The notes beneath the pieces were generated by a model. That model made no database searches. It worked only from the letters and a program-made list of their open reading frames with translations, and had not been told where the DNA came from. Shown one piece after another: positions 982 through 16,212 of a stretch of 32,641 nt of DNA. The DNA lies in the NCBI GenBank assembly GCA_947589625.1, contig CANQCM010000001.1:1-32641 (forward strand), written 5' to 3'. Made by a program: the position numbers and the translations under genes. Origin of the DNA: an uncultured Alphaproteobacteria bacterium. Its GTDB lineage: Bacteria; Pseudomonadota; Alphaproteobacteria; Rs-D84. The first letter of the stretch is position 1, and every line of letters starts with the position of its first letter.

Positions 982-2361
982 ATGAAAAAACAATCTGATT
1001 CTAAAAAACAAATCCGCGATATGGTTGATGACGATATTTTCGCGTCAGATGAACTGAAACATGTTCTGCCAGATTTCAAAATGCCACGCCGTGAACAAGA
1101 CGCAGACCGCATATACCAAGCGGTTCGCGATGAATTAATGATGGACGGTAATGCACGGCAAAATCTGGCGACTTTCTGTCAGACATGGGTTGATGAAAAT
1201 TCTCATAAATTAATGGATCAATCTATTGATAAAAATATGATTGATAAAGACGAATACCCACAAACCGCAGAAATAGAACGCCGATGTGTCGCAATGCTGG
1301 CTGACCTGTGGCACAGTCCAAATCCGCGCACAACAATGGGCTGTTCAACAACAGGGTCGTCCGAGGCGGCTATGCTGGGCGGATTGGCACTGCTGCGCAA
1401 ATGGCAATCAACACATAAACGCGGAAAACCAAATCTGGTGTGTGGGCCCGTTCAGATTTGTTGGCATAAATTCTGTCGCTATTGGGATATTGAAATGCGC
1501 GAAGTACCCCTTGCCCCCGACCGTTTAATGATGACACCTGACGAAATGTTGAAATATATTGACGAAAATACTATTGCGGTTGTGCCAACATTGGGCATTA
1601 CATACACAGGCCGATATGAAAATGTTGAATCAATTGCGCGCGCACTGGACGCATACCAGCGCAAAACTGGTATTGATATTCCAATTCATGTTGATGCGGC
1701 ATCTGGCGGATTTCTGGCGCCGTTTTGCCAGCCTGAATTAAAATGGGATTTTCGCATTCCGCGTGTAAAATCCATCAATTCATCAGGACATAAATTCGGT
1801 CTGTCGCCATTGGGTGTTGGTTGGGTCGTGTGGCGCACCCGTCAAGATTTACCAGATAATTTAATATTCTGGGTCAATTACTTGGGCGGAAATATGCCAA
1901 CATTTGCATTGAACTTTTCGCGGCCAGCGGGTCAAATAATCTGTCAATATTATAATCTGTTGCACCTAGGGTTTGAAGGTTATAAACGTATACAAGACGC
2001 ATGTTATGACACGGCAAAATATCTGGCACGCGAATTAAATAAATTAAAAATATTTGATTTAGTTGCAGATGGTACAGACGGCATACCAGCGGTCGCATGG
2101 CGGTTAAAGAAAAATGCGTCTGTAAATTTCACACTGTATGATTTGGCAGATCGCCTGCGCACAAATGGGTGGTTGTCGCCTGCGTATTCTATGCCACCAA
2201 ATGCCCAAGATGTTGTTGTTATGCGCGTCTTGGTCAAGCATGGATTTTCGCGCGATCTGGCAGACTTGTATATAAATGATATAAAACGCGCCCTTGATTT
2301 CTTTGCATCGCACCCTGTACAGACACCATTGAAACGCGGCAGTTTCAATCACGGAAAATAA
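982..2361 (+). CDS. gadB: Glutamate decarboxylase (PLP-dependent, group II)
   Basis: 459-aa ORF. It has the PLP-lysine motif [22 protein letters not shown], close to E. coli GadA/B ([22 protein letters not shown]). Length also matches (about 466 aa in E. coli). An RBS is present. Confidence 0.9.
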
Positions 2362-3004: not shown

Positions 3005-5425
3005 TTATAAATCACCACCGCCGCTTTTTTTCAAGTATTCTGAAACAAAACTATTTCCATATTGCTGGTATAATTCTTCTGCCAGTAATACAGATGAACG
3101 GCCTGATTCAAATAACCGCAATAAATTACCCAACCCACCCAGTTCCGTATTTAATATCACAGATTCACCTGTGACCGGTCTTGATAATAATACGGCGCGT
3201 TTCAAATTAGGATATGCCTTGCCCTGAATAAATGCCATTTCCAGTGGATTCAAATTCCAATGTTCGTAATCATTTGCGTCTGCCGCAGGATTACGGAAAA
3301 ACAGTACTGTTTGCGCCTGACCACGAACAACATCGCCAATACCTAATTTATCCAGAACATTTGCGCGTTGAAATGCAACCATATATGCTTGACGATTTTT
3401 GCGCCCTTCTTGCAGACCTGTAATAAAATTATCGCGAAACATTTTGTTTTCCAGCATTGGCGCTGTTTCATCAATCATAATCAATGACGGATTACCACCC
3501 GACACAGTTATATTATTTATACGATGTAAAATATATGATATGACCGCAGGTGCCAATGTCGCATCTTGCAAAATATCTGTAAAATCAAATGTCGTCAGAC
3601 GCGATTGCAAATCAAGAGTATCTGCAGATTCATTAAACATATCGCCATATTGCAGTGGGTCAACCCACTTTTTTAATGCACCACGCATATTGCCTTCGGA
3701 CGAAAAACAACTTTCCCACAGATTTTTCAGCAAACGGTCTTTTTCTGGTAAATAGTCAAAATTCACCGACACAGCGCGCGCAATTTCGTCTGCAGAAAAA
3801 GCATCTTCTTGACCAGAAATCATTGCCAACCAACGCCGCAAAAATGCGCGGTTTGCCGCCGTATCAGATATTTTTAACGGGTTCAAATGTGTTTCAAAAG
3901 AAATTGCGTTTTCGTCTGTATTTTTATCTTTGCCCTGCATCGTTATATACTTGCCACCAACAGACAATGTAAATATTTCTGCACCTTTATTACGGTCAAA
4001 GAAAAATGCTTTTAATTTTTTATGACGCAATGATTGCGCAATCAAGAAACTAAACAGTGTTGTTTTACCACCCCCAGTTGGCCCAATTGTCAGAGTATGC
4101 GCCACCGCCGCAGGTTTGTCTGATACATGAAATTGAAATTGATACGGTGTACCTTGGGCGGTTGGAAATATAACCAATGGCCCACGACCCCAATCAGAAT
4201 TTGCAACACCGCGCGGTGTACTGGACATCGGAATACTGATTGCCGCGGTGCGCGACAACATTTTGAAACTGCGCGGAAATGTATCAAAGCCTGGAATTTG
4301 TGCAAACCAAGAAACTTGTGCAGCGAAATTTTCTATAATCGGCGAAATACCAAAAGACGCGCAAATCTTTTTGAATTCATCAATATAATTATTCAATTCT
4401 TCTTGGGTTGCGCCAGATATAATAAACAGCGGATAAAAATTCACCAGTGTTTGATTACCAGAAATATTTTCGTCCATCGCACTTTGTGCCGCATTTATTT
4501 GCTGTTCTGTTGAATCTGTTTTTTCGTCTGCGGTTGCTTGTCGTTGGCGAATTGTGGCTTCTACTTCGGACGCGCCCATAATACGAAATGCGTTCATACA
4601 AACCATTTCTGTTTGAATTGTTGATACAGATGTAAAGAAATCTTCGTCCAGATAATCAGGCGACATTTTGAAAGACGCCATTGCTGCAAAAGATTGCTGG
4701 TTGCCACTGACATACCGAACCAGCCCATGACGAATAAAATTCACATCGTCAACAGTTGCCAATTCAGATAAACGATTATCACAAACGCGCGGTGATGGCT
4801 TGGAAATTGGCGATAAAATGCGCCCGAAAAATTTCGCCATATTATCAGTATTGTTATTGCGCAATACAGACGGTTTATATGCCGCCAAAATAGATTCTAT
4901 ATAATTTCCATATTGATTTAATTTATCACGCGCATTTGCACCAGATACAGTCAAAACAATATAATAATTATTCAAAAATATTTTTAACCCTTGCGCGCGC
5001 CATTTATCATAAATTTTCTGTAATACAGGCTGGTCAAATTCGTAATTAGTATTTTCATCGGCGGCATCACGCGTCATAAAGAACCGCAACACCGCATTTG
5101 AATCGTTTATTTGGTTAAATAATTGAGTACGCAATTCCAGAAATTTTTCACGCGTTGCGTCATCTTGCATACTGGTTTGAACACCATTGACCCGATAAAC
5201 CCGTACCAGTGATCCATCTGATAATTCCACAGAATCGTCATTATAAACAGTTTTGAACGGCATATATTGTGAATAACGCGCATAACCAAAACTGGGGAAA
5301 ATACGGCGCGTCAATGCAGGCAGATACATCATCAACAAAATAAATACAAAAATTACCGCCATTGCCAAAACAGTAATAGTTATTGGAAATCCACCACCTG
5401 CAAAATATTCAAAAAATTTATTCAT
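3005..5425 (-). CDS. virB4: Type IV secretion system ATPase VirB4
   Basis: 806-aa ORF with Walker A GPTGGGKTT and Walker B-like LIMIDETAP. The N-terminal TM segment, the size, and the position directly after virB3 are all typical of VirB4/TrbE. Confidence 0.93.
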   Translation of the reverse strand: MNKFFEYFAGGGFPITITVLAMAVIFVFILLMMYLPALTRRIFPSFGYARYSQYMPFKTVYNDDSVELSDGSLVRVYRVNGVQTSMQDDATREKFLELRTQLFNQINDSNAVLRFFMTRDAADENTNYEFDQPVLQKIYDKWRAQGLKIFLNNYYIVLTVSGANARDKLNQYGNYIESILAAYKPSVLRNNNTDNMAKFFGRILSPISKPSPRVCDNRLSELATVDDVNFIRHGLVRYVSGNQQSFAAMASFKMSPDYLDEDFFTSVSTIQTEMVCMNAFRIMGASEVEATIRQRQATADEKTDSTEQQINAAQSAMDENISGNQTLVNFYPLFIISGATQEELNNYIDEFKKICASFGISPIIENFAAQVSWFAQIPGFDTFPRSFKMLSRTAAISIPMSSTPRGVANSDWGRGPLVIFPTAQGTPYQFQFHVSDKPAAVAHTLTIGPTGGGKTTLFSFLIAQSLRHKKLKAFFFDRNKGAEIFTLSVGGKYITMQGKDKNTDENAISFETHLNPLKISDTAANRAFLRRWLAMISGQEDAFSADEIARAVSVNFDYLPEKDRLLKNLWESCFSSEGNMRGALKKWVDPLQYGDMFNESADTLDLQSRLTTFDFTDILQDATLAPAVISYILHRINNITVSGGNPSLIMIDETAPMLENKMFRDNFITGLQEGRKNRQAYMVAFQRANVLDKLGIGDVVRGQAQTVLFFRNPAADANDYEHWNLNPLEMAFIQGKAYPNLKRAVLLSRPVTGESVILNTELGGLGNLLRLFESGRSSVLLAEELYQQYGNSFVSEYLKKSGGGDL

Positions 5426-5427
5426 TT

Positions 5428-5745
5428 TTATGCCGCTAATCTTTTAGGTATTTTGTCTTTGAATAATTTTATTTTTGCCGCAATTATTTGCCCCAGTTGC
5501 GGATCGCGTTTGGCAAATATCGCAATGATAGAATGAACAATTATCACAGAAATTAGAAAATACAACGGGTTAATTGCATTTTGACCCTTGGTTATTATTA
5601 AATCTATGGTGAAAATTATTATAAATATTATAAATTGAATAACAAAGTTCAACACCGCCAAAGTATATGGCACATAAAATAACCTTGCAGGATTTGCAAA
5701 AGCTTTCAAAACCTGTTGTTTCAATGGTAATAATCCTCCTAACAT
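5428..5745 (-). CDS. virB3: Type IV secretion system protein VirB3
   Basis: Small two-TM protein. The segment VLKAFANPARLFYVPYTLAVLN matches the VirB3 signature (xxTRPAxxxGVPxxxxxxN). Its stop lies 2 nt before the virB4 ATG. The start is ambiguous. The track uses TTG 5784, which overlaps the motif array. I list ATG 5745. An in-frame TTG at 5724 is preceded by a perfect AGGAGGA (complement 5734..5740) and may be the real start. Confidence 0.8.
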   Translation of the reverse strand: MLGGLLPLKQQVLKAFANPARLFYVPYTLAVLNFVIQFIIFIIIFTIDLIITKGQNAINPLYFLISVIIVHSIIAIFAKRDPQLGQIIAAKIKLFKDKIPKRLAA

Positions 5746-5759
5746 AAAAATTATAACAA

Positions 5760-5956
5760 TTTCAACAGTTTTCAACAAGAACAAAAAGTATTTAGATAAA
5801 ATTGTTGAAATCTGTTGAAAACTTTCACTTTTTCAACTGTTTATTAAACAGGTGGTATTTTTCAACAGATTTTCTATACCCCGCAGAAATCTGGCAAAAA
5901 ATTGTTGAAAAATTGTTGATAAAAAATTAAAAACTCGTTTTCAACAATTTCAACAG
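5760..5956. promoter_or_regulatory. Array of 10 copies of a 9-bp motif TTTCAACA(G/A), reverse complement YTGTTGAAA, in the virB3/rpmJ divergent intergenic region
   Basis: Forward copies start at 5760, 5770, 5860, 5939 and 5948, plus the variant TTTCAACTG at 5831. Reverse copies start at 5802, 5812 and 5902, plus the variant TTGTTGATA at 5913. Four tandem pairs are spaced 9-11 bp apart. 5760..5778 and 5802..5820 form an 18/19 inverted repeat. Confidence 0.6.
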
Positions 5957-5989
5957 GTACAATAAAAACAACAAATATATAATAATTAT

Positions 5990-6017
5990 TTGATTTTATG
6001 TAAAAAGCGTTTATAAT
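5990..6017 (+). promoter_or_regulatory. Candidate sigma70-type promoter for rpmJ (TTGATT-N16-TATAAT)
   Basis: Hexamers at 5990..5995 and 6012..6017 with a 16-nt spacer, about 24 nt upstream of the rpmJ ATG. Confidence 0.45.
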
Positions 6018-6040
6018 GCCAAGGCAAAAAGGATTTAGAC

Positions 6041-6175
6041 ATGAAATTTTTAAGTTCATTAAAGGCTTGGAAAAAACGCGGTAATGTTAAACAAATTCGC
6101 CGTGGAAAACAAGTTATCTTGATTGACCCTAATAATCCTAAATTAAAGGCTAAACAAGGGTTCAAGAAAAAATAA
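6041..6175 (+). CDS. rpmJ: 50S ribosomal protein L36 (Cys-less type, as in alphaproteobacteria)
   Basis: Not in the ORF track because it is only 44 aa. Translation: MKFLSSLKAWKKRGNVKQIRRGKQVILIDPNNPKLKAKQGFKKK. This aligns with the non-zinc L36 pattern MKxxxSLKxxKxR...RRxGxxxVIxxxNPxxKAxQG. An AAAGGA RBS lies 7 nt upstream and a hairpin terminator follows. Confidence 0.85.
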   Translation: MKFLSSLKAWKKRGNVKQIRRGKQVILIDPNNPKLKAKQGFKKK

Positions 6176-6229: not shown

Positions 6230-6910
6230 TTAAAATAATGAAAAATCGTTTTTGAATGCTTCGCGCATGGCGGCATCAGCCTCGGCACCGGAAAGTCCTG
6301 CACCCCGTAAAAATTGAATTTTATCGGGGCTGATATTATAAATAGATGCACTGTGACCAGCATTTTGTGGAACGGAATTTATTCTTTGCGATGGCATAAA
6401 TTCTATTTTCGCCGATTTATCAGCCATAACAGACATTGAAATATCAGAATTTGCGTTTTCTATATTTTTCAAAATTTGTGCGGTGGCGTGTATAACTGTT
6501 TTAGAATTTTTTTCAGCCAAGATTCTAGATTGGATTAAAATCCCTGTATCATCGTATAAATGTTCGGCGTTTATATTTATATTTAATTCGTTAAAATTTT
6601 GGGCAAATATTTGACCGCGCATTTCAGAATTTTTACCGGCATTTTTTACAAAAATATCAAAAAAAGCCGGCTTTTTATTATTTATATTTACACTTAAAAA
6701 GACCGGTTGATTTGGCACAGAAATATCAATATTTAACCGACATTTACCGGCAATTTCGCCAATATAAATTATATGAACAGGTTTTTCGTATTTTTTATTT
6801 ATTTGTGTGTCGGGCAAAGTAGATAATTCTGGGCAAAATTCACCATCGCGAAAAACAACAGTTTCCGCCGCAAAGGTTTTTATATTGAATTCTTGCCAAA
6901 GGTATGACAT
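6230..6910 (-). CDS. Short stand-alone SufD/SufB-family (UPF0051 beta-helix) protein
   Basis: 226-aa ORF. The C-terminal segment AGHSASIYNISPDKIQFLRGAGLSGAEADAAMREAF matches the conserved SufB/SufD C-terminus (xGHxAxxGxLdeexLFYLxSRGixxxxAxxLLxxAF). It is roughly half the length of canonical SufD, and no sufB/C/S genes are nearby. Confidence 0.65.
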   Translation of the reverse strand: MSYLWQEFNIKTFAAETVVFRDGEFCPELSTLPDTQINKKYEKPVHIIYIGEIAGKCRLNIDISVPNQPVFLSVNINNKKPAFFDIFVKNAGKNSEMRGQIFAQNFNELNININAEHLYDDTGILIQSRILAEKNSKTVIHATAQILKNIENANSDISMSVMADKSAKIEFMPSQRINSVPQNAGHSASIYNISPDKIQFLRGAGLSGAEADAAMREAFKNDFSLF

Positions 6911-6937: not shown

Positions 6938-8017
6938 ATGGGATTCAATTGTGGAATTGTTGGTTTGCCAAATGTTGGAAAATCTACATTGTTTAATGCA
7001 TTAACGCAAAGTGCTGCCGCAGATGCGCAAAATTATCCTTTCTGCACGATAGAGCCAAATACAGGTCGTGTTGTTGTGCCTGATGAAACATTGTTAAAAT
7101 TGGCGGCATGTTGTAATTCTGCGAAAATAATACCGACACAACTAGAAATTGTTGATATTGCAGGTCTGGTCAAAGGCGCATCACAGGGCGAAGGGCTGGG
7201 CAATAAATTTTTAGGTAATATTTTATCCACAGACGCGATTATTCATGTTGTTCGCTGTTTTGAAAATGACGATATTGTTCATGTAAATGGTAAAATAGAT
7301 CCGTTAAGTGATATTGACACAATTGAAACAGAATTAATGTTGGCAGATATAGAAAGTCTGGATAAACAAATAAAAAATCTTGAAAAGAAAGCACATGGAC
7401 TTGATAAAGTTGCAATTAAATTATTAGAGGCAGCAAATAAAATTCGTGCTGGTTTATCATCTGGCATACCAGCCCGAAACACAAGCCCAGATGCATGCGC
7501 GTTTAATTTATTAACTGCAAAACCTGTGATTTATGTTTGTAATGTAGAAGAAGCATCTGCGGCAAATGGAAATAAATTTTCAGATATGGTGGTTGAAAAA
7601 TTTGGAAAAATTGCGCCTGTTTTAATTATTTCATCAAAAATAGAAATGGAAATTTCACAAATTGTTGACCCAGAAGAACGCAAAATGTTTTTAGATGAAC
7701 TGGGGTTGCAAGAATCAGGACTTGATAAAATTATTCGTACAGGTTATGAAACATTGGGATTACAAACATTTTATACAGTTGGACCAAAAGAAGCGCACGC
7801 TTGGACAATTACGCGTGGCATGACTGCGCCACAGGCAGCGGGCAAAATTCACACAGATTTTGAACGCGGATTTATTCGTGCAGAAATAATTTCACCCCAA
7901 GATTTTCTTGAACTGGGTGGTGAAGTGGCTGTTAAAGAAGCAGGAAAAATGCGCCTTGTTGGTAAAGATTATGTTATGCAAAATGGTGATATATGCCATT
8001 TCTTGTTTAATAATTAA
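6938..8017 (+). CDS. ychF: Ribosome-binding ATPase YchF (Obg-like)
   Basis: 359 aa. Has the G1 motif GIVGLPNVGKSTLFNALT and the conserved C-terminal TGS-like region (HTDFERGFIRAE). AAAGGA RBS. Confidence 0.93.
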   Translation: MGFNCGIVGLPNVGKSTLFNALTQSAAADAQNYPFCTIEPNTGRVVVPDETLLKLAACCNSAKIIPTQLEIVDIAGLVKGASQGEGLGNKFLGNILSTDAIIHVVRCFENDDIVHVNGKIDPLSDIDTIETELMLADIESLDKQIKNLEKKAHGLDKVAIKLLEAANKIRAGLSSGIPARNTSPDACAFNLLTAKPVIYVCNVEEASAANGNKFSDMVVEKFGKIAPVLIISSKIEMEISQIVDPEERKMFLDELGLQESGLDKIIRTGYETLGLQTFYTVGPKEAHAWTITRGMTAPQAAGKIHTDFERGFIRAEIISPQDFLELGGEVAVKEAGKMRLVGKDYVMQNGDICHFLFNN

Positions 8018-9633
8018 ACAATATCTGTAATTGTTTCAAGTTTTTCGCGGCATTTGGCGATTTCTGCGTCTATTTGATTTACGCGTTCCATGTCGCCCGC
8101 CGCACCAGAAACAATGTCTGCCATCGCAGATTTTTTTTCTTGGATTAATTTTTTTATTCTGTTGTTTAACTTTAATGAAACGATATATTTTTCCGCCGAT
8201 GTAAAATCAAGATTTTGTTCAGGCGCACTGTCATCAAGTGATATATTTAATGATGCCAAAAATTCTGCATGCCGTTCTGCCAATTCTGGATATTTAATCG
8301 CAATATATGTCAAAGTATTACGTGTCAATGAATCAATATCAGGAACATCAATTACGGGCGCGTCAGATTTCTTTTTCCATTTATGCCAAGCGTTAAATTT
8401 GCGTGAATTATATTCATTTTCATATTCCGCGCGTAATTTTATATCGGTAATTTTTGAAATTTGCGATGTTAGAAATTTTTCTGCCTGTGTGCGACCATTT
8501 GGTGTATTTATCAAATAATTTTTATTTACAGTATTCCATAAAAAATCAACCAAAGGTGTTGCGCTGTCTATAATTTTACGCATTGCATCAACACCTGATG
8601 TTTTTAATACTTCGTCTGGATCTTTGCCACCTGTTACAAATGCAAATTTCACATCAGAATTATCGCGCAAAAATGGCATAACAATTCCGCATGCACGCAC
8701 AGCCGCCTTTTGCCCAGCATTATCGCCATCAAAACAGAAAACAATATTACGATTGGATTTACATAAAATAGCGATATGTTCTTCGGTCAGTGCTGTTCCC
8801 AGTGGTGCAATAGTTTCTGGAAAACCGTTATTTTGCATTTGAATTGCGTCAATTTGGCCTTCTACCACGATACTGCGATTCGCACGGTGGATTGCATCGC
8901 GCGCGAAGTTAAGTCCAAAAATTGTGTGCCGTTTATGAAATAGTTCTGTATCAGATGTATTTATATATTTTGGTTCACTGCCGTCAAGGCTGCGCCCAGA
9001 AAAAGCAACAATTTGACCACGCGGTGAAAAAATAGGAAACATTAATTTATCACGAAAAAAATCGTATAAACCATAATCACCGCGCCGACAAAGACCGGTA
9101 TTAATAACATTTTCCATGCGCGTATTTACAAATTTATTTGAAATAATGTTATTTTTTGGTGCATAACCAATGCGGTATTTTTTTATCATTTCATCTGAAA
9201 AACCGCGGCGGCGAATATATTCTAATGCATGCGCACCATCGGGTGAAAATAATTTTTCAGTATATATTTTGCATGCTGTATCCATTATATCAAAATAAGA
9301 TTCTTCGCGCGCAATTTGCTCGTCAGATTTTGGTTTGTATTCTGGTAATTTTAATCCAGCCTGTGCAGCAAGTTCTGTGATAGCAGCGCGAAAATCAATA
9401 TTATTTATTTTCATTGTAAAAGAAATAATATCGCCATGTTCGCCACAACCAAAACAATGATAAAAACCTTTTTCTTCACTGACAGAAAAACTTGGTGTTT
9501 TTTCATTATGAAACGGACAGCAACCCCAATAATTTTGACCTTTTTTTACTAGTGGCACACGTCTGGACACAACATCAACGATTGATAATCGTGTACGTAA
9601 TTCATCTGTAAAATTTCTGTCATAAGATGCCAT
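8014..9633 (-). CDS. dnaG: DNA primase
   Basis: 539 aa. Zinc-binding motif CCPFHNEKTPSFSV...YHCFGCGEHGD. TOPRIM motifs VVEGQIDAI and FDGDNAGQKA. Confidence 0.93.
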   Translation of the reverse strand: MASYDRNFTDELRTRLSIVDVVSRRVPLVKKGQNYWGCCPFHNEKTPSFSVSEEKGFYHCFGCGEHGDIISFTMKINNIDFRAAITELAAQAGLKLPEYKPKSDEQIAREESYFDIMDTACKIYTEKLFSPDGAHALEYIRRRGFSDEMIKKYRIGYAPKNNIISNKFVNTRMENVINTGLCRRGDYGLYDFFRDKLMFPIFSPRGQIVAFSGRSLDGSEPKYINTSDTELFHKRHTIFGLNFARDAIHRANRSIVVEGQIDAIQMQNNGFPETIAPLGTALTEEHIAILCKSNRNIVFCFDGDNAGQKAAVRACGIVMPFLRDNSDVKFAFVTGGKDPDEVLKTSGVDAMRKIIDSATPLVDFLWNTVNKNYLINTPNGRTQAEKFLTSQISKITDIKLRAEYENEYNSRKFNAWHKWKKKSDAPVIDVPDIDSLTRNTLTYIAIKYPELAERHAEFLASLNISLDDSAPEQNLDFTSAEKYIVSLKLNNRIKKLIQEKKSAMADIVSGAAGDMERVNQIDAEIAKCREKLETITDIV

Positions 9634-11891
9634 TATTTCCGTTTGAATCTGGTAAATTTATGTGTTGGTTGTTTGTTATTTATTAAATCTATTGCGGTTT
9701 GCAAATCAGGCTTTTCTTTCACACCGACATTAACGCGATTTGATGAAATATATGGCCCATATCTGCCAGATGAATAATAATAAATTTGTTTTCCAGTATT
9801 TGGATTTTCACCAAGAATTTCGGGCTCCTGCTTTTTTGTACCGCCATTTAACAATTCGCGCGCAATATCAAGAGTTATTGTTTCTGATGTATAATTTTTA
9901 GCAGACGCATTTTTTTTACCGTTCGTGACATACGGCCCAAATTTTCCAATTTTGAACACAATATTTTCACCCAAATCAACAGACGCAGCCGTGGCAGGTT
10001 TTTCCACAGAATTTTCAGGCGTCCCACTATTATCACCCGATTCAAATCGTTTTGTAAAATTGCATTTTGGATAATTTTCACAACCAATAAATGCACCAAA
10101 CTTGGACAGTTTTAATCCCAGTTTTCCGCCACATAGCGGACAGATATTATTTCCATCTGATGCCAAATGCGCCGCCATAGATTCATTTAATGAATTTATA
10201 ATATCTGTGGTTTTTACACCGCGCGCATCATCAATCATAGATTTCGTTGGTGTCCAGAAATCTTTTAACGCGTCCAATTTTTTTTGTTTGCCATTTGAAA
10301 CATCGTCCAGAGTATCTTCGGTTTTTGCGGTAAAATTAACATCAACCAGTTCAGAAAAATATTTTTCCAAATAAGATGCAATAACCCAACCGCCAGATGT
10401 CGGGTGAAAACGGCGTTGTTTATCTTGTTCAACATATTTGCGGTCTACAATCGTAGACATAATTGTTGCGTATGTTGACGGACGCCCGATTCCCAACTCT
10501 TCCAGTTTTTTTACCAAAGATGCCTCGGTATAACGCGCAGGTGGTTGTGTGAAATGTTGTTCAGAATTTAGTTTATTTATTTCAATTTTTTCGCCAATTT
10601 CTAATGGTGGTAATTTATTATCGTCTTTATCAGAATCGTCATCGCGTGCCTCGGTATAAACGCGTGTAAAACCATCAAAAGTTTTTGTAGAACCAGACGC
10701 ATGGAATATTGCATTTTTTGTGGCGATATCGGCACTGACGCCATCAAATTCTGCATTTGTCATTTGACATGCAATAGTACGTTTCCAAATCAAATCGTAT
10801 AATCTTTCTTCGTCACCAGATACATTTGGCGCACTGCCATCAAAGTGTGTAGGACGAATCGCCTCGTGCGCTTCTTGGGCATTTTTAGATTTTGTAATAT
10901 AAATATTTGGTGCGTGTGGTACAAACGCGTCGCCATAATTTTTTGCAATATATTCGCGAATTTCCGCCACCGCGTCTGCTGACAAATTTGTTGCGTCTGT
11001 ACGCATATATGTAATTAAACCTTGTTCATATAATTTTTGTGCAGCCACCATTGTGCGTTTAGACGAAAAGAATAATTTACGCGCCGCTTCTTGTTGTAAT
11101 GTACTGGTTGTAAAAGGTGCAGCGGCACGTCGCGAAGTATGCTTTTTATCAATTGTTTTGACTGTGCCAGTTATTACAGGCGCGCCAACTGCGTTCAAGA
11201 TTTTATTCATTTCATCTTGATTTTTAATTGATAATTTTTCAATTTTTTGTCCGTCAAATTGCGTTAAATTTGCAACAAATGCGCCACTGTCTGATTTGCA
11301 TTCTGCGTCCAATGACCAATATTCAACAGGCTTAAACGATTCTATTTCGCGTTCGCGATCAACAACTAATTTTACCGCCACAGATTGCACACGGCCAGCA
11401 GATTTACCAAGGTTTCGCCGCCACAGTAATGGTGAAATACCAAAACCAATTAAATAATCCAATGCGCGGCGAACCATATACGCATCAACTAAATCATTAT
11501 CAATTTCGCGCGGATTTTCAATTGCCGCCAAAACCGCCTTTTTAGTAATTTCATGAAACGCAACGCGATAAACTTTTTTATCTTTTAATAATTTTTTTGC
11601 GTTTAATATATCCAGTATATGCCATGCAATCGCCTCGCCTTCGCGGTCAGGATCTGATGCCAGATATACTGCATCGGCTTGTTTTAATTCATCAGTAATA
11701 ATTTTTAACTGTTTTTCTTTGCCTGGCATAATTTGCCAACGCATTTGAAAGTCTTTATCTGGGTCAACACTGCCGTTTTCAGGAACTAAATCACGAATAT
11801 GACCAACAGACGCAACAACATGCCAGCCATTGCCCAGATATTTTTCAATTGTTTTTGCTTTGGACGGTGATTCAACAATAAGTAAATTCAT
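9633..11891 (-). CDS. topA: DNA topoisomerase I
   Basis: 752 aa. TOPRIM motifs LLIVESPSKAKTI and SDPDREGEAIAWH. Active-site Tyr context GLITYMRTD. C-terminal Zn-ribbon CPLCGG...CENYPKC. The stop shares one nt with the dnaG ATG (TAATG). Confidence 0.93.
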   Translation of the reverse strand: MNLLIVESPSKAKTIEKYLGNGWHVVASVGHIRDLVPENGSVDPDKDFQMRWQIMPGKEKQLKIITDELKQADAVYLASDPDREGEAIAWHILDILNAKKLLKDKKVYRVAFHEITKKAVLAAIENPREIDNDLVDAYMVRRALDYLIGFGISPLLWRRNLGKSAGRVQSVAVKLVVDREREIESFKPVEYWSLDAECKSDSGAFVANLTQFDGQKIEKLSIKNQDEMNKILNAVGAPVITGTVKTIDKKHTSRRAAAPFTTSTLQQEAARKLFFSSKRTMVAAQKLYEQGLITYMRTDATNLSADAVAEIREYIAKNYGDAFVPHAPNIYITKSKNAQEAHEAIRPTHFDGSAPNVSGDEERLYDLIWKRTIACQMTNAEFDGVSADIATKNAIFHASGSTKTFDGFTRVYTEARDDDSDKDDNKLPPLEIGEKIEINKLNSEQHFTQPPARYTEASLVKKLEELGIGRPSTYATIMSTIVDRKYVEQDKQRRFHPTSGGWVIASYLEKYFSELVDVNFTAKTEDTLDDVSNGKQKKLDALKDFWTPTKSMIDDARGVKTTDIINSLNESMAAHLASDGNNICPLCGGKLGLKLSKFGAFIGCENYPKCNFTKRFESGDNSGTPENSVEKPATAASVDLGENIVFKIGKFGPYVTNGKKNASAKNYTSETITLDIARELLNGGTKKQEPEILGENPNTGKQIYYYSSGRYGPYISSNRVNVGVKEKPDLQTAIDLINNKQPTHKFTRFKRK

Positions 11892-11894
11892 TTT

Positions 11895-13040
11895 TTAACT
11901 TCCTTTGGCAGACAATTGTTGGTCTTTATGAATATGTGCGTTTTGGCAAAGTCCAAACCCAAACATCAGTGATAACAGGCTGCTGCCGCCGAAAGACATC
12001 AATGGCAACGGCACACCCACAGTTGGCATTAGACCCAACACCATTGCAATATTTATAAAATAATAAATGAAAAAGTTCAACATAAAACCAAAACAGACCA
12101 GTTGCCCAAACCGATTTCTGCATGTTTTTGCGCACCAAAATAAGATAAATACCATAAATGTATATATTGCCAACAGTACAAACGCGCCCAAGAAACCAAA
12201 TTCTTCGCCCAGCATAGTAAATATGAAATCTGTCTGTTTTTCTGGCAAAAATGATTGTTGCGATTGCGACCCATGCAAATATCCTTTGCCAATAATACCG
12301 CCAGAACCAAATGCGATTTTTGCCTGATTTATTTGATAACCTGCGCCTTGGGCATCAATATCAGGATTTATAAAAGTTATAATTCTGTCGCGTTGATAGT
12401 CGTGCAGACCACCATACCAAACCAAAGGAGTGGCTAAAATACCCAGAATCGCGGCAATTACAAACCATTTCTTTTGCGCGCCAACAATATAAAACATGCC
12501 AACTGTAATCATGCCTAATGATAACGCAGTACCTAAATCAGGTTGCGCGACAATCAGACCAAACGGTACCAGCATTAATAAAACAGGCACAATGTAATTT
12601 TTTATCTGTGCCAGTTCAACAGAATTTAACCATGCAAAATAACGCGCCAAAGCCAACACCAGTGCAATTTTAATAAATTCTGATGGTTGTATATGAATAA
12701 AGCCCAAATTTAACCATCGCTGGGCGCCCATACCTGTATGTCCAACAAATGTAACCAATATAATCATAACCAGCGCGATTGCGTAAATAACATATGCTGA
12801 TTTAACCCAAGTTTTAATATTAGTAAATGCCGCAATCCAGAACACAACAAAACCCATTAAAATTTTCATCAATTGCGATAATGCAAACGGGCGCCATGCG
12901 CCACCACCTGCAGAATACAGAACAACAATAGACATCGCCATAATCAAACACAATGGAATAAACATCAGCCATGAAAAACGCGACAGTTTTTCAGAAAAAT
13001 TCATCATTGATGCGTTTGAAACACGTGTCTGATTTGCCAT
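11895..13040 (-). CDS. rodA: Peptidoglycan glycosyltransferase RodA (SEDS family)
   Basis: Polytopic membrane protein of the FtsW/RodA family, located directly after PBP2 and mreCD. The start was moved from the track's 13109 to ATG 13040, 1 nt after the mrdA stop. The longer version overlaps mrdA by 68 nt. Confidence 0.88.
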   Translation of the reverse strand: MANQTRVSNASMMNFSEKLSRFSWLMFIPLCLIMAMSIVVLYSAGGGAWRPFALSQLMKILMGFVVFWIAAFTNIKTWVKSAYVIYAIALVMIILVTFVGHTGMGAQRWLNLGFIHIQPSEFIKIALVLALARYFAWLNSVELAQIKNYIVPVLLMLVPFGLIVAQPDLGTALSLGMITVGMFYIVGAQKKWFVIAAILGILATPLVWYGGLHDYQRDRIITFINPDIDAQGAGYQINQAKIAFGSGGIIGKGYLHGSQSQQSFLPEKQTDFIFTMLGEEFGFLGAFVLLAIYTFMVFILFWCAKTCRNRFGQLVCFGFMLNFFIYYFINIAMVLGLMPTVGVPLPLMSFGGSSLLSLMFGFGLCQNAHIHKDQQLSAKGS

Positions 13041-13041
13041 G

Positions 13042-14808
13042 TTATTTTTGTCCCTGTAATATAGCCCGCATAGTTGCCGCCGCGGTACGTGCCGCAGGCC
13101 CAGAACCACCAGAATGTTCTGTTATAACACATACTGCATATTTCGGATTATCCAGTGGCGCAAAACCAACAAACAAACCATGATTTCGCATATTCCATTT
13201 TAATTGTTCGTTTGTTAAAACACCGCTAAGTCTTTCTGCGCGTGATATAGAACGAACCTGTGCAGTTCCTGTTTTGCCACCCATACGCGCGCCGTTTATG
13301 TTTATTGCGCTGCCTGCGGCAGTACCGCCAGCGCGCAAAACTTCTGCCATGCCGTCCATAACATATTTTATATTTTTTTGTTGCAGACCCAATGATTTGA
13401 AGTTTGCTTTTTTATCGCTTTTGATAATATGCGGCACAATTTTCCGATTTGATGTCGCGCGCGCAACCATTGTTGCCAATTGCAGACAATTTGCTAAAAC
13501 ATAACCTTGACCAATTCCAGAAATAATCGTGTCCCCATGAACCCAGCGCGCACCGATATTTTTTTCTTTCCAAATTCTGTCTGGAATAATGCCTGCCATT
13601 TCGCGTGGCATAACATCGCCCAGAAATTTTTCTGTGAACCCTAGTTTTACAGCCATATCTTTGATTGCATCAATACCAATACGCAACGCAACCTGATAAA
13701 AATAAATATCGCATGAATGTTTTAATGCACCCTGTAAATCAACCCAACCATGACCGTCAGATTCCCAACAGTGATAACGATGGTCGCCATATTCCCAAAA
13801 TCCAGGGCAATAGATTTTTTCGTTCGGTGTAATTGCGCCAGATTCTAATGCTGCCAACGCAACAACAATCTTGAATGTTGACCCAGGTGGATATAAACCT
13901 TCTATTGTTTTATTTACAAATGGTTTGCTGGGGTCAGAACGCAGATTTTCAATATATTCTTCGTCTTCAAAATTATTTGCATCAAAACTGGGCGTAGAAA
14001 CCATTGCCAGAATATCGCCCGATTGAATATCCAGTAAAACGCCACAGCCTGCATTATGTAATGTCAATGCATCATACATTGCGCGTTGCGCAGTGTCGTT
14101 TATTGTTGTCTGAATATCGGCGCCGATTTTTGGTGCAATATATTGTGATTTATCTTCGCCTGTTATGCGCCCTACTGCATTTGCAATCATAACTGTTTGC
14201 CCAGGCGTACCAGATAAAACATTGTTATATTTTTTTTCAAGACCCGTGATACCAGTGGTAAAAAATGGTGCATTTGGCACAGGCGCATCAGGCGCACCAA
14301 CATACCCAAAAACTTGTGCGCCAGCAGGCCCCATTTCGTACACACGGGCAAATCCGCTGCGTACATGCAGACCTTCAAGATTTTTCGCCTGTAATTTTGC
14401 AAGGCTGTCCCAATCGGAATTTTGGCTGACCAGAACAGGTTGAAATGGTGCTTGTTTTTTTATTCGCTTGTAGATTTTATCAACAGTTTTTTTACTTAAA
14501 TTCAATTCTGTGGAAACTGTTTTAACCAGTGCGTCAATATCAGGCGTTTCTTCGGGAATAATATAAATGCGATATGTGGGCGCATCGTGTGTAATTGCTG
14601 CGCCAGACGCAGATAATATCTGACCGCGTTGTGGCATATCAATCTGGATACGGAAAGAATTATTCTCGCTTTTTTTAGTATATTCGCGATAATCAAACAA
14701 TTGCATTTGCAACATTCGCATCACTAATACAGATGTTAAAATCGTGCCTGTGGTTAAAAACAAAGCACTGCGACGGTCAAAAGTGCGTGCGACTTCGTTA
14801 TCTATCAT
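13042..14808 (-). CDS. mrdA: Penicillin-binding protein 2 (elongasome transpeptidase)
   Basis: Has the SxxK motif (GSTFKIV) and KTG motif (GKTGTAQ), plus an N-terminal TM anchor. ATG 14808 is preceded by AAAGGG at 6 nt. The track start at 14811 is a GTG only 3 nt after that RBS. Confidence 0.9.
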   Translation of the reverse strand: MIDNEVARTFDRRSALFLTTGTILTSVLVMRMLQMQLFDYREYTKKSENNSFRIQIDMPQRGQILSASGAAITHDAPTYRIYIIPEETPDIDALVKTVSTELNLSKKTVDKIYKRIKKQAPFQPVLVSQNSDWDSLAKLQAKNLEGLHVRSGFARVYEMGPAGAQVFGYVGAPDAPVPNAPFFTTGITGLEKKYNNVLSGTPGQTVMIANAVGRITGEDKSQYIAPKIGADIQTTINDTAQRAMYDALTLHNAGCGVLLDIQSGDILAMVSTPSFDANNFEDEEYIENLRSDPSKPFVNKTIEGLYPPGSTFKIVVALAALESGAITPNEKIYCPGFWEYGDHRYHCWESDGHGWVDLQGALKHSCDIYFYQVALRIGIDAIKDMAVKLGFTEKFLGDVMPREMAGIIPDRIWKEKNIGARWVHGDTIISGIGQGYVLANCLQLATMVARATSNRKIVPHIIKSDKKANFKSLGLQQKNIKYVMDGMAEVLRAGGTAAGSAININGARMGGKTGTAQVRSISRAERLSGVLTNEQLKWNMRNHGLFVGFAPLDNPKYAVCVITEHSGGSGPAARTAAATMRAILQGQK

Positions 14809-15256
14809 CACAAACCCTTTTGATTAATTCTGTTATCGGAAAATACAAAACGCAACACCACGCCATCAGCCATAATCCGCGCGCCAGTATTGCAAATTTG
14901 AAATTTACCAGCGTCATGATAATCAACGCCACCGCTATAAAGCACGCAAATAAACCCAAACCATTACGATCTATATTACGCATATCAATAATGTTTTGGA
15001 AACCTGTAATTGCATATGTAAATAAAAATAATACTGTCCACAATAACAAGGTATCAAAGCGATAATCTATTAAAAAACAAAATATAACTGAAAACGGCAC
15101 AAACCACCGCACAGGGCGAATAAAAGAACAAAAAAATATCGGAATAATTGCTAAAATACCACCTGGATTCCAAAACGGTATCATTAGTCGCCACAGTATC
15201 AAGACCGCAAAAAACGGAAATGCAGCGCGACAAAAATTTATAATTTTTGGAATCAT
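14798..15256 (-). CDS. mreD: Rod shape-determining protein MreD
   Basis: 152-aa polytopic membrane protein lying between mreC and mrdA. It has an ATGA overlap with the mreC stop. The call rests mostly on position and hydrophobicity. Confidence 0.75.
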   Translation of the reverse strand: MIPKIINFCRAAFPFFAVLILWRLMIPFWNPGGILAIIPIFFCSFIRPVRWFVPFSVIFCFLIDYRFDTLLLWTVLFLFTYAITGFQNIIDMRNIDRNGLGLFACFIAVALIIMTLVNFKFAILARGLWLMAWCCVLYFPITELIKRVCDDR

Positions 15257-16074
15257 TTATATTCAGCCCCAATATCAAAATCTAGAATCATAACACGACT
15301 AAGTTTTTGTGGCGGAATAACGCGCACATCAGATTCATTTATCAATTCGCCAACAATCAGCCCATTTGGTAAAACACCACTGATATTACTGCTGACCAGT
15401 TTTATGCCAGATGTTGGTTGAAATTCTGGGTCACTAAAAAATCCAATTGTTGGGTTTGATGTGCCGTTACCTTGCAGAAAACCATATACTTCGGAACCTG
15501 CAACGCGTACAGCAATATTTGTATTTGCGTCTGTCAATGCGCGTATGCGTGAAAAATGCGATGCGACATCAATTATAATTCCAACCAGATAACCATCAGG
15601 CGAAATTGCAACCATGCCTTTTTCCAGACCTTTATTTGCGCCTTTATCTATTAAAAAAGTACTGTGATTAAATGCAGTGTTATCATAAATCACATCTGCA
15701 ACAATTGTGCGACGGGGCGAATTTTGCACAACATCTAATTCATGTGCCAGTTTTTGATTTTCATCAATTGCCACGTCGCACAAGTTTTTATTTGCCAACG
15801 CATCATCAAGGCGCGCGCGTAATTCTTCGTTTTCTTCGCGCAGATTAGACAATTCACGCAAGTTTGCCGCAACATTGCCCACTAATCGCACAGGATATGT
15901 AATTATATCGCCACAAACATTTGCCACAGGCAAAACAACATGCGCCAACCCGTTCATAATGCGATAATCTGGTTTTGCAATCATCACATATATAAACAAT
16001 ACAGGCAATACCGCGGCTGCGATTGCAGAACGTATAATTTGCCATGCGCGTGATGATAATCTGTTTTGGTTCAT
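15253..16074 (-). CDS. mreC: Rod shape-determining protein MreC
   Basis: N-terminal TM segment, a coiled-coil region (LRELSNLREENEELRARLDDA), and beta-rich C-terminal domains. The start was moved to ATG 16074; the track start at 16110 is a TTG. Confidence 0.85.
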   Translation of the reverse strand: MNQNRLSSRAWQIIRSAIAAAVLPVLFIYVMIAKPDYRIMNGLAHVVLPVANVCGDIITYPVRLVGNVAANLRELSNLREENEELRARLDDALANKNLCDVAIDENQKLAHELDVVQNSPRRTIVADVIYDNTAFNHSTFLIDKGANKGLEKGMVAISPDGYLVGIIIDVASHFSRIRALTDANTNIAVRVAGSEVYGFLQGNGTSNPTIGFFSDPEFQPTSGIKLVSSNISGVLPNGLIVGELINESDVRVIPPQKLSRVMILDFDIGAEYK

Positions 16075-16212
16075 GGTTATTACTTTAACCACTAAAATTT
16101 CAGGATTCAATAAAAACTTGATTTTTCTTTTTTATGTGCCACAATAGTGCCGTGTTTAATCAGCCAAAGTGGCAATTGGCATTGCCATCAGGCGAAAATA
16201 AGAGGTTAAAAA

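Follow-up and report, generated by a model that had tools for sequence, protein, structure and literature searches.

A dense repeat array was analysed in a 32,641-nucleotide stretch of DNA (the window; metagenome-assembled contig CANQCM010000001.1 of assembly GCA_947589625.1) from an uncultured alphaproteobacterium. The array occupies the spacer between the divergently transcribed genes virB3 and rpmJ and is very probably the site at which chromosome replication starts (oriC) in this genome of Candidatus Enterousia (Rs-D84, Alphaproteobacteria); Candidatus Enterousia is described in PMC12306168 as belonging to the order Rs-D84, with genomes below ~1 Mb. This reading is supported by the identity of the repeated motif, by an architecture shared across species and by a switch in strand composition at the array. 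The original prediction, made from the window alone, had favoured a regulatory hub for the type IV secretion system (T4SS) and had named replication iterons as an alternative; the evidence essentially favours the alternative, the motif corresponding to a DnaA-box variant and the skew switching at the array.

Ten copies of the repeat were counted between window positions 5759 and 5955 (197 bp), comprising eight exact TTTCAACA cores (starting at 5760, 5770, 5803(-), 5813(-), 5860, 5903(-), 5939 and 5948) and two copies with one mismatch (TTTCAACTG at 5831 and TATCAACAA at 5913(-)). On both strands of the window together there were 11 exact cores, and only three (at 1547, 23582 and 26172) lay outside the array, in the other 32.4 kb. 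Shuffling of the window gave 4.49 cores per 32.6 kb, or approximately 0.03 expected per 197 bp compared to 8 observed, and a Poisson estimate from these shuffle figures placed the chance of the array in the order of 1e-17. Within the four tandem pairs the two copies start 10, 10, 11 and 9 bp apart, and successive pairs alternate in orientation; an inverted repeat of 19 nt (5760-5778 with 5802-5820) was found to be 95% complementary. The recount thereby reproduced what had originally been reported from inspection, namely ten copies (eight exact, two one-off) in 197 bp, four alternating tandem pairs 9-11 bp apart, an inverted repeat made by the first two pairs, only isolated cores elsewhere in the window and a clustering beyond chance.

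In its 9-bp form the repeat reads (T/A)T(T/A)T(C/T)AACA, with variable positions 1, 3 and 5. The elements of the spacer are given below in window coordinates.

5759..5767, plus strand: predicted DnaA box B1, ATTTCAACA; within the virB3 promoter spacer and invariant in three relatives fetched through VirB4
5769..5777, plus strand: predicted DnaA box B2, TTTTCAACA; overlaps the virB3 -35
5803..5811, minus strand: predicted DnaA box B3, ATTTCAACA; position kept, TGTTAAAA in many relatives
5813..5821, minus strand: predicted DnaA box B4, TTTTCAACA; position kept in relatives
5830..5838, plus strand: predicted DnaA box B5, degenerate, TTTTCAACT; several relatives have an exact TTTCAACA at the aligned position
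5859..5867, plus strand: predicted DnaA box B6, TTTTCAACA; most species keep a copy at relative position ~+100
5880..5895, no strand: GC-containing short inverted repeat, CCCGCAGAAATCTGGC, between B6 and B7
5903..5911, minus strand: predicted DnaA box B7, TTTTCAACA; kept in relatives
5914..5922, minus strand: predicted DnaA box B8, TTATCAACA; one mismatch to the E. coli consensus TTATCCACA
5938..5946, plus strand: predicted DnaA box B9, TTTTCAACA; upstream box of the candidate unwinding module, aligns with Ruminococcus modules
5947..5955, plus strand: predicted DnaA box B10, ATTTCAACA; the box closest to the AT-rich region, towards which its ACA end points
5956..5959, plus strand: 4-nt spacer GGTA; most relatives, like Ruminococcus, have GCCC or GGCC
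5960..5977, plus strand: trinucleotide-periodic tract CAA TAA AAA CAA CAA ATA, candidate deviant DnaA-trios; CTA CAA CAA CAA in relatives
5960..6011, no strand: AT-rich block, candidate DNA-unwinding element on composition alone (90% A+T in 5960-5999)

The boxes abut as pairs with gaps of 0-2 bp and in alternating orientation, and the ten predicted boxes in 197 bp form a cluster within a few hundred bp, as looked for in an oriC.

The sole consistent difference between the repeat and the DnaA box TTWTNCACA is an A in place of C at position 6, and two of the positions at which the repeat varies, 3 and 5, are degenerate in TTWTNCACA as well. The substitution has a precedent, in that the DnaA-box consensus is given as TT(A/T)TC(C/A)ACA for Mollicutes and as TT(T/A)T(C/T)(C/A)ACA for Acholeplasma laidlawii (PMC3322544, citing Cordova 2002). 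The array repeats are most likely DnaA boxes of this already published A-at-position-6 variant. Six of the ten 9-mers fit TTWTYAACA exactly, and the median over 33 species of the clade was 6 exact TTWTYAACA boxes and 11 with at most one mismatch; canonical TTWTNCACA boxes occurred in the window at chance level and unclustered. A literature search with the literal 8-mer returned primers only, and it was the addition of 'DnaA' which led to the Mollicute consensus. Partial resemblances to an RpoH-type -35 (CTTGAAA), a PhoP box, a Spo0A box and a Ros box were dropped, as the motif is bi-oriented, equals a DnaA box and is found at one locus per genome among the matches listed.

GTDB species genomes were scanned with the pattern WTTTCAACARWTTTCAACAR (the exact tandem pair), which gave at least 120 eight-kb loci, the matches listed being 31 from the clade and 89 non-alphaproteobacterial. 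Five of the latter 89 carry dnaA in the same 8-kb block (~0.3 expected by chance, by our own estimate); DnaA was confirmed with NCBIfam in L013, L103, L017 and L024, and in L104 was recognised only by its Walker A and DHTTV motifs. Two metagenome-assembled genomes (MAGs) of Ruminococcus (L013 and L103) each carry more than 20 copies of TTTCAACA directly downstream of dnaA, the array region of L103 being the confirmed dnaA-dnaN spacer. In L013 the TTTCAACA copies are mixed with TTTTCCACA and the region terminates in CTTTTCCACAGTTTCAACATACCCTACTACTACTACTAACTATATAC..., and in L103 the TTTCAACA type alone is present and the region terminates in CTTTCAACAGTTTCAACAGCCCCTACTACTACTACTATAAATTATTT... 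An equal arrangement, together with canonical TTATCCACA, was found in L091 (a Clostridia MAG), with no dnaA in its 8-kb block. The dense DnaA-box clusters (L013:6500-7650; L103:6040-6620, minus strand; L091:3370-3560) each close with box-box-GC-(CTA)n-AT-rich modules. On sequence, these ends are textbook modules of the basal unwinding system (BUS), in which a pair of boxes is followed by a GC cluster, CTA repeats and an AT-rich stretch (PMC8287927, PMC6669920), and the top-strand form of the DnaA-trio repeats is given as CTACTACTA (PMC7561715).

In L013, L103 and L017 the DnaA protein reads GGRDHSTI, compared to GGRDHTTV in E. coli and Bacillus, and the L024 open reading frame (ORF) was seen only by its Walker A motif; the GGRDHSTI difference might have a bearing on whether A is tolerated at box position 6. 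In three orthologous Bacteroidales loci (Bacteroides/Phocaeicola; L023, L044 and L052), TTTCAACA is scattered in 7-9 copies per 8 kb, at similar relative spacing.

The distal end of the window array has a layout comparable to these modules. In the window the order is B9-B10 (TTTTCAACA-ATTTCAACA, 5938-5955), GGTA, CAA TAA AAA CAA CAA ATA and a block of 90% A+T (5960-5999); most relatives read TTTTCAACA-A-TTTCAACA-G-(G/C)CCC-TAC-AAC-AAC-AAC-AAT-AAA..., which aligns column-for-column with the Ruminococcus modules as far as the first triplet. B9/B10 are followed by the 4-nt spacer in the same orientation as in the L013 and L103 modules, with a box inside the 16 bp allowed for a BUS, and the AT-rich element expected of an oriC lies beside the terminal box, as judged by composition.

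The 31 clade matches are Candidatus Enterousia and other gut Alphaproteobacteria MAGs, and all of them were located by tblastn at the rpmJ/virB3 locus; the exact tandem pair occurs at one locus per genome in these 31 genomes, among the matches listed. Three relatives fetched through VirB4, and hence independently of the motif (L005, L007 and L008), have the same rpmJ/virB3 spacer, all three keep B1/B2, and their block GAATTATAACAATTTCAAC-A-(G/A)-TTTTCAACAAG is identical but for the single G/A. A comparison of virB3 upstream regions in relatives had been proposed as a check on the original prediction, and the array was found to be kept in ~35 species, with boxes, relative to the proximal pair, at 1>, 11>, 44<, 54<, 72> or 83>, 100>, 143<, 154<, 178> and 188>. 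Degenerate copies in relatives read TGTTAAAA. Conservation of the boxes other than B1/B2 is non-circular. Relatives with VirB4 83-86% identical were abundant, some on contigs of 0.76-0.94 Mb; VirB4 identity at the scan loci was 64-82% and that of VirB3 only 29-42%.

The inverted repeat at 5880-5895 is at the same position across species and varies in sequence (CCGGAAAAACCGG, for example, in relatives). A subclade (L009, L014, L034, L059, L064, L068 and L079) has exactly 10 bp missing beside B8 (window 5914-5935), an indel of one helical turn which preserves the phasing of the flanking boxes. Across the clade virB3 evolves much faster than virB4.

These comparisons also bear on the proposal that the array binds a dedicated transcription factor of the OmpR/PhoB family (VirG- or CtrA-like) controlling virB3-virB4 and perhaps rpmJ, which is considered highly improbable. 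Tandem direct repeats approximately one helical turn apart, with the proximal pair overlapping the virB3 -35 and spacer, are what such a factor would use, and it was on this architecture that an OmpR/PhoB-type response-regulator array had originally been suggested; the measured spacing, though, varies between 9, 10 and 11 bp and is therefore ill-suited to a fixed tandem dimer. No second pair locus was found, relaxed tandem pairs occurring nowhere else in ~87 kb of clade DNA and the exact pair at one locus only in the 31 species, among the matches listed, which is unlike a regulon motif and does not fit the T4SS regulatory hub of the original prediction. The resemblance to the Agrobacterium VirG vir box was likewise lost on inspection, none of the ten copies matching TNCAATTGAAAY at up to 2 mismatches and the window-wide count of that box being at chance level. 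A CtrA-type site, TTAA-N7-TTAA, is present in 8 of 35 species, mostly at B7/B8, and is missing from the window and from the other 27; as a candidate, TTAA-N7-TTAA(C) was rejected as not conserved and absent from the window array. A transcription factor would also leave unexplained both the same motif beside dnaA in Ruminococcus and the skew switch described below.

Plain GC skew in 1-kb windows tracked gene orientation only and was uninformative; four-fold degenerate sites with a coding-strand baseline were therefore used. G, C, A and T were counted at four-fold degenerate third positions of 215 long ORFs from 35 loci, all in the orientation of the window, and the four-fold-site GC skews obtained for the coding strand were as follows.

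Left of the array, minus strand: +0.339
Left of the array, plus strand: -0.025
Right of the array, plus strand: +0.178
Right of the array, minus strand: +0.059

AT skew showed complementary behaviour at the same 35 loci. The pattern is that expected of a constant coding-strand bias combined with a leading-strand excess of G and T which changes strand at the array, and its polarity is that of an origin and not of a terminus. In a likelihood scan the best breakpoint lay within -500 to +500 bp of the array, and an origin-polarity switch raised the log-likelihood by 121.7 (G/C) and 39.4 (T/A), compared to 13.9 for one-directional replication; the switch remained when virB4/orf205, or the entire syntenic core, was left out (gains of 29-39 units; Mann-Whitney P from 1e-13 to 4e-3 in the reduced sets). 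The coincidence with an origin-polarity switch looked for in an oriC was thus observed over the 215 genes and 35 loci, and locus by locus in 25 of 25 (GC) and 21 of 25 (TA). From -3.5 kb to +10 kb, no non-coding stretch other than the array spacer exceeds ~60 bp.

Two side observations concern the flanking genes. The region beyond orf205 in L005 (13051-16442) and L006 (13555-15713) is variable in close relatives, with differing restriction-modification or GmrSD genes and a resolvase; the skew of these genes is opposite to that of their neighbours, which fits recent acquisition. In some species, such as L034 (1-1901) and L064 (4764-7999), topA-dnaG has been relocated across the virB3-virB4-orf205 block and still points to the array, so that these genes remain on the inferred lagging strand.

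The skew also bears on whether the boxes might form a cluster outside the origin, either a DnaA-controlled promoter or a titration site (similar to E. coli datA or the Bacillus subtilis clusters), with oriC elsewhere. This too would account for a DnaA-box variant, for the overlap of boxes with the virB3 promoter, for the distance from dnaA and for trinucleotide repeats which are non-canonical, and yet it is judged very unlikely, given the origin-polarity switch at the array spacer in 25 of 25 loci, the box-box-spacer-repeat-AT-rich layout seen in bona fide dnaA-dnaN origins and the lack of other sizeable non-coding DNA close by. A centromere-like partition site, or an architectural site for a nucleoid protein, would suit phased repeats, an origin-proximal position and a single occurrence per genome (among the matches listed). 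The motif, though, lacks symmetry and corresponds to a DnaA box, no parS-like sequence was found at up to 3 mismatches, and no parAB genes lie close by; this explanation is regarded as extremely improbable.

Several points weigh against assigning oriC to the array. No dnaA was found in the 32.6-kb window, nor within up to ~10 kb on either side in the relatives, and a motif scan of all fetched loci detected dnaA only in the Firmicutes matches. The essential dnaG-topA-rodA-mrdA-mreC operon would be read head-on to the rightward fork. The DnaA-trio rule is given in PMC8287927 as a central adenine (NAN) in at least three trios in a row, on the strand running 3' to 5' from the boxes, and no three consecutive 3'-NAN-5' trios were found here, with only 1-3 CTA units per species: the clade repeats are mostly CAA, which gives 3'-GTT-5' on the trio strand, without the central adenine, and are non-canonical as DnaA-trios. 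Deviant trios were anticipated by the BUS authors. Conservation of B1/B2 in the 31 scan loci is circular because the scan required the proximal pair, uniqueness per genome rests on the matches listed, and the skew data span at most ~26 kb of flanking DNA (~10 kb in relatives) and not the whole chromosome.

If the array is the oriC, DnaA-ATP would fill the abutting, alternately oriented box pairs and oligomerise across them, with B9/B10 directing it onto the 4-nt spacer, the trinucleotide repeats and the AT block (5960-6011), where the duplex would open and the helicase be loaded. The virB3 (leftward) and rpmJ (rightward) promoters both point outward from the array, and divergent transcription could plausibly aid unwinding through negative supercoiling. 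B1/B2 cover ~-16 to -35 of the virB3 promoter, and because of this overlap transcription of virB3-virB4 is probably influenced by DnaA; DnaA on B1/B2 would hinder RNA polymerase and so probably lower it. A more far-reaching proposal, which is thought unlikely, is that the code has shifted, such that DnaA would read both the double-stranded boxes (A at position 6) and the single-stranded repeats (3'-GTT-5' and not 3'-GAT-5') differently, and that virB3-virB4 expression would in addition be coupled to initiation by DnaA occupancy.

The flanking genes and promoters are given below.

3005-5425, minus strand: virB4, confirmed by NCBIfam
5428-5722, minus strand: virB3, weak Pfam match; TTG start at 5720-5722, Shine-Dalgarno AGGAGG at 5734-5739
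5750..5778, minus strand: virB3 promoter; -35 TTGTTG (5773-5778), 17 bp, TG extension (5757-5758), -10 TATAAT (5750-5755)
5990..6017, plus strand: rpmJ promoter TTGATT, 16 bp, TATAAT; inside the AT-rich block
6041-6175, plus strand: rpmJ-like, 44 aa, divergent type B L36; 27 bits, under the 70-bit cut-off
6230-6910, minus strand: sufD-like
6938-8017, plus strand: ychF
8014-16110, minus strand: dnaG, topA, rodA, mrdA, orf152 and mreC

The promoter and Shine-Dalgarno model first proposed for virB3 held, with TTGTTG, TATAAT and AGGAGG read in the sequence, kept in relatives and fitting a start at TTG 5720-5722; the gene names used with it were borne out for VirB4 by NCBIfam, for VirB3 by a weak Pfam match and for rpmJ by an L36-like match below the cut-off. 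The promoter block ATTATAACAATTTCAACA.TTTTCAACAAG is conserved in relatives, and the same anatomy (TTGTTG, 17 bp, TG-extended TATAAT, AGGAGG) is common to all of them. The rpmJ promoter is invariant in L005, L007 and L008 and nearly so in 25 species. Calls for the virB3 start differ: the ORF finder chose TTG at 5784 and the public gene call has ATG at 5745, but it is the TTG at 5720-5722 which is supported, as it aligns with the ATG of the relatives. The rpmJ product has no cysteines and a lysine-rich tail, is 84-97% conserved in the clade and is preceded by a near-consensus promoter. An Rfam search gave only sub-threshold matches, and as the conservation is neither codon-like nor RNA-like, a structured RNA or small ORF is unlikely. 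A glutamate decarboxylase gene (window 982-2361) adjoins the T4SS genes and in L007 (15568-18380) is followed by an amino-acid permease, an arrangement suggestive of a module for glutamate-dependent acid resistance in these gut bacteria of reduced genome.

An origin at this position would be placed for Rs-D84 (Candidatus Enterousia), a gut order of reduced genomes (<1 Mb), and at neither hemE nor dnaA, the usual places to seek alphaproteobacterial origins. A known origin allows coverage-based estimates of growth rate from metagenomes. As the array lacks canonical TTATCCACA boxes, origin finders based on consensus patterns could miss it. The A-at-position-6 box would be in use well beyond Mollicutes, in Ruminococcus, other Clostridia and this alphaproteobacterium, and the origin may exemplify the deviant DnaA-trios which the BUS authors anticipated. 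Repeats in front of virB3 do not necessarily mark the site of a virulence regulator.

Compared to known systems, the array resembles Agrobacterium VirG vir boxes and OmpR/PhoB sites in having direct repeats, spaced at approximately one helical turn, ahead of a virB gene, and differs in its lack of a vir-box match, its variable spacing, its single locus (among the matches listed) and the skew switch. In PMC1914354 the Caulobacter crescentus Cori and Rickettsiales origins are described as flanked by hemE and as containing CtrA sites, a site for IHF and a promoter. The array is likewise alphaproteobacterial, with an embedded promoter and approximately five paired sites in 200-400 bp, whereas it has no hemE or COG1806 flank, no conserved CtrA-type TTAA-N7-TTAA and no canonical TTATNCACA boxes. 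With respect to the Mollicute and Acholeplasma consensus TT(A/T)T(C/T)(C/A)ACA, the motif is exactly the A-at-position-6 form; in Mollicutes the boxes flank dnaA, and here the same variant occurs in an alphaproteobacterium of reduced genome. Its unusual details are the uniformly non-canonical boxes in an alphaproteobacterium and the CAA-type repeats in the place of DnaA-trios.

The B. subtilis incC-type BUS (Richardson 2016/2019, Pelliciari 2021; PMC8287927, PMC6669920) shares with the array a tandem pair, a 4-nt and usually GC-rich spacer, trinucleotide-periodic repeats, an AT-rich block and additional boxes, in either orientation, upstream of the pair. In contrast to it, A takes the place of C at position 6 in all window boxes, CAA and not CTA predominates in the repeats, leaving the central-adenine rule unobserved, and dnaA is not adjacent. 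The Ruminococcus and Clostridia origins (L013, L103 and L091) belong to Firmicutes and not to Alphaproteobacteria; they have canonical CTA trios, compared to mostly CAA in Enterousia, and in L013 and L091 mix TTTTCAACA with TTTTCCACA or TTATCCACA, which the window array does not. L013 and L103 adjoin dnaA (L103 between dnaA and dnaN), unlike the window array. In all three origins the box TTTCAACA is identical to that of the array, with the same 9-11 bp spacing, and the junction TTTCAACA-N-TTTCAACA-G-CCCC-TAC... is nearly identical to that of the clade.

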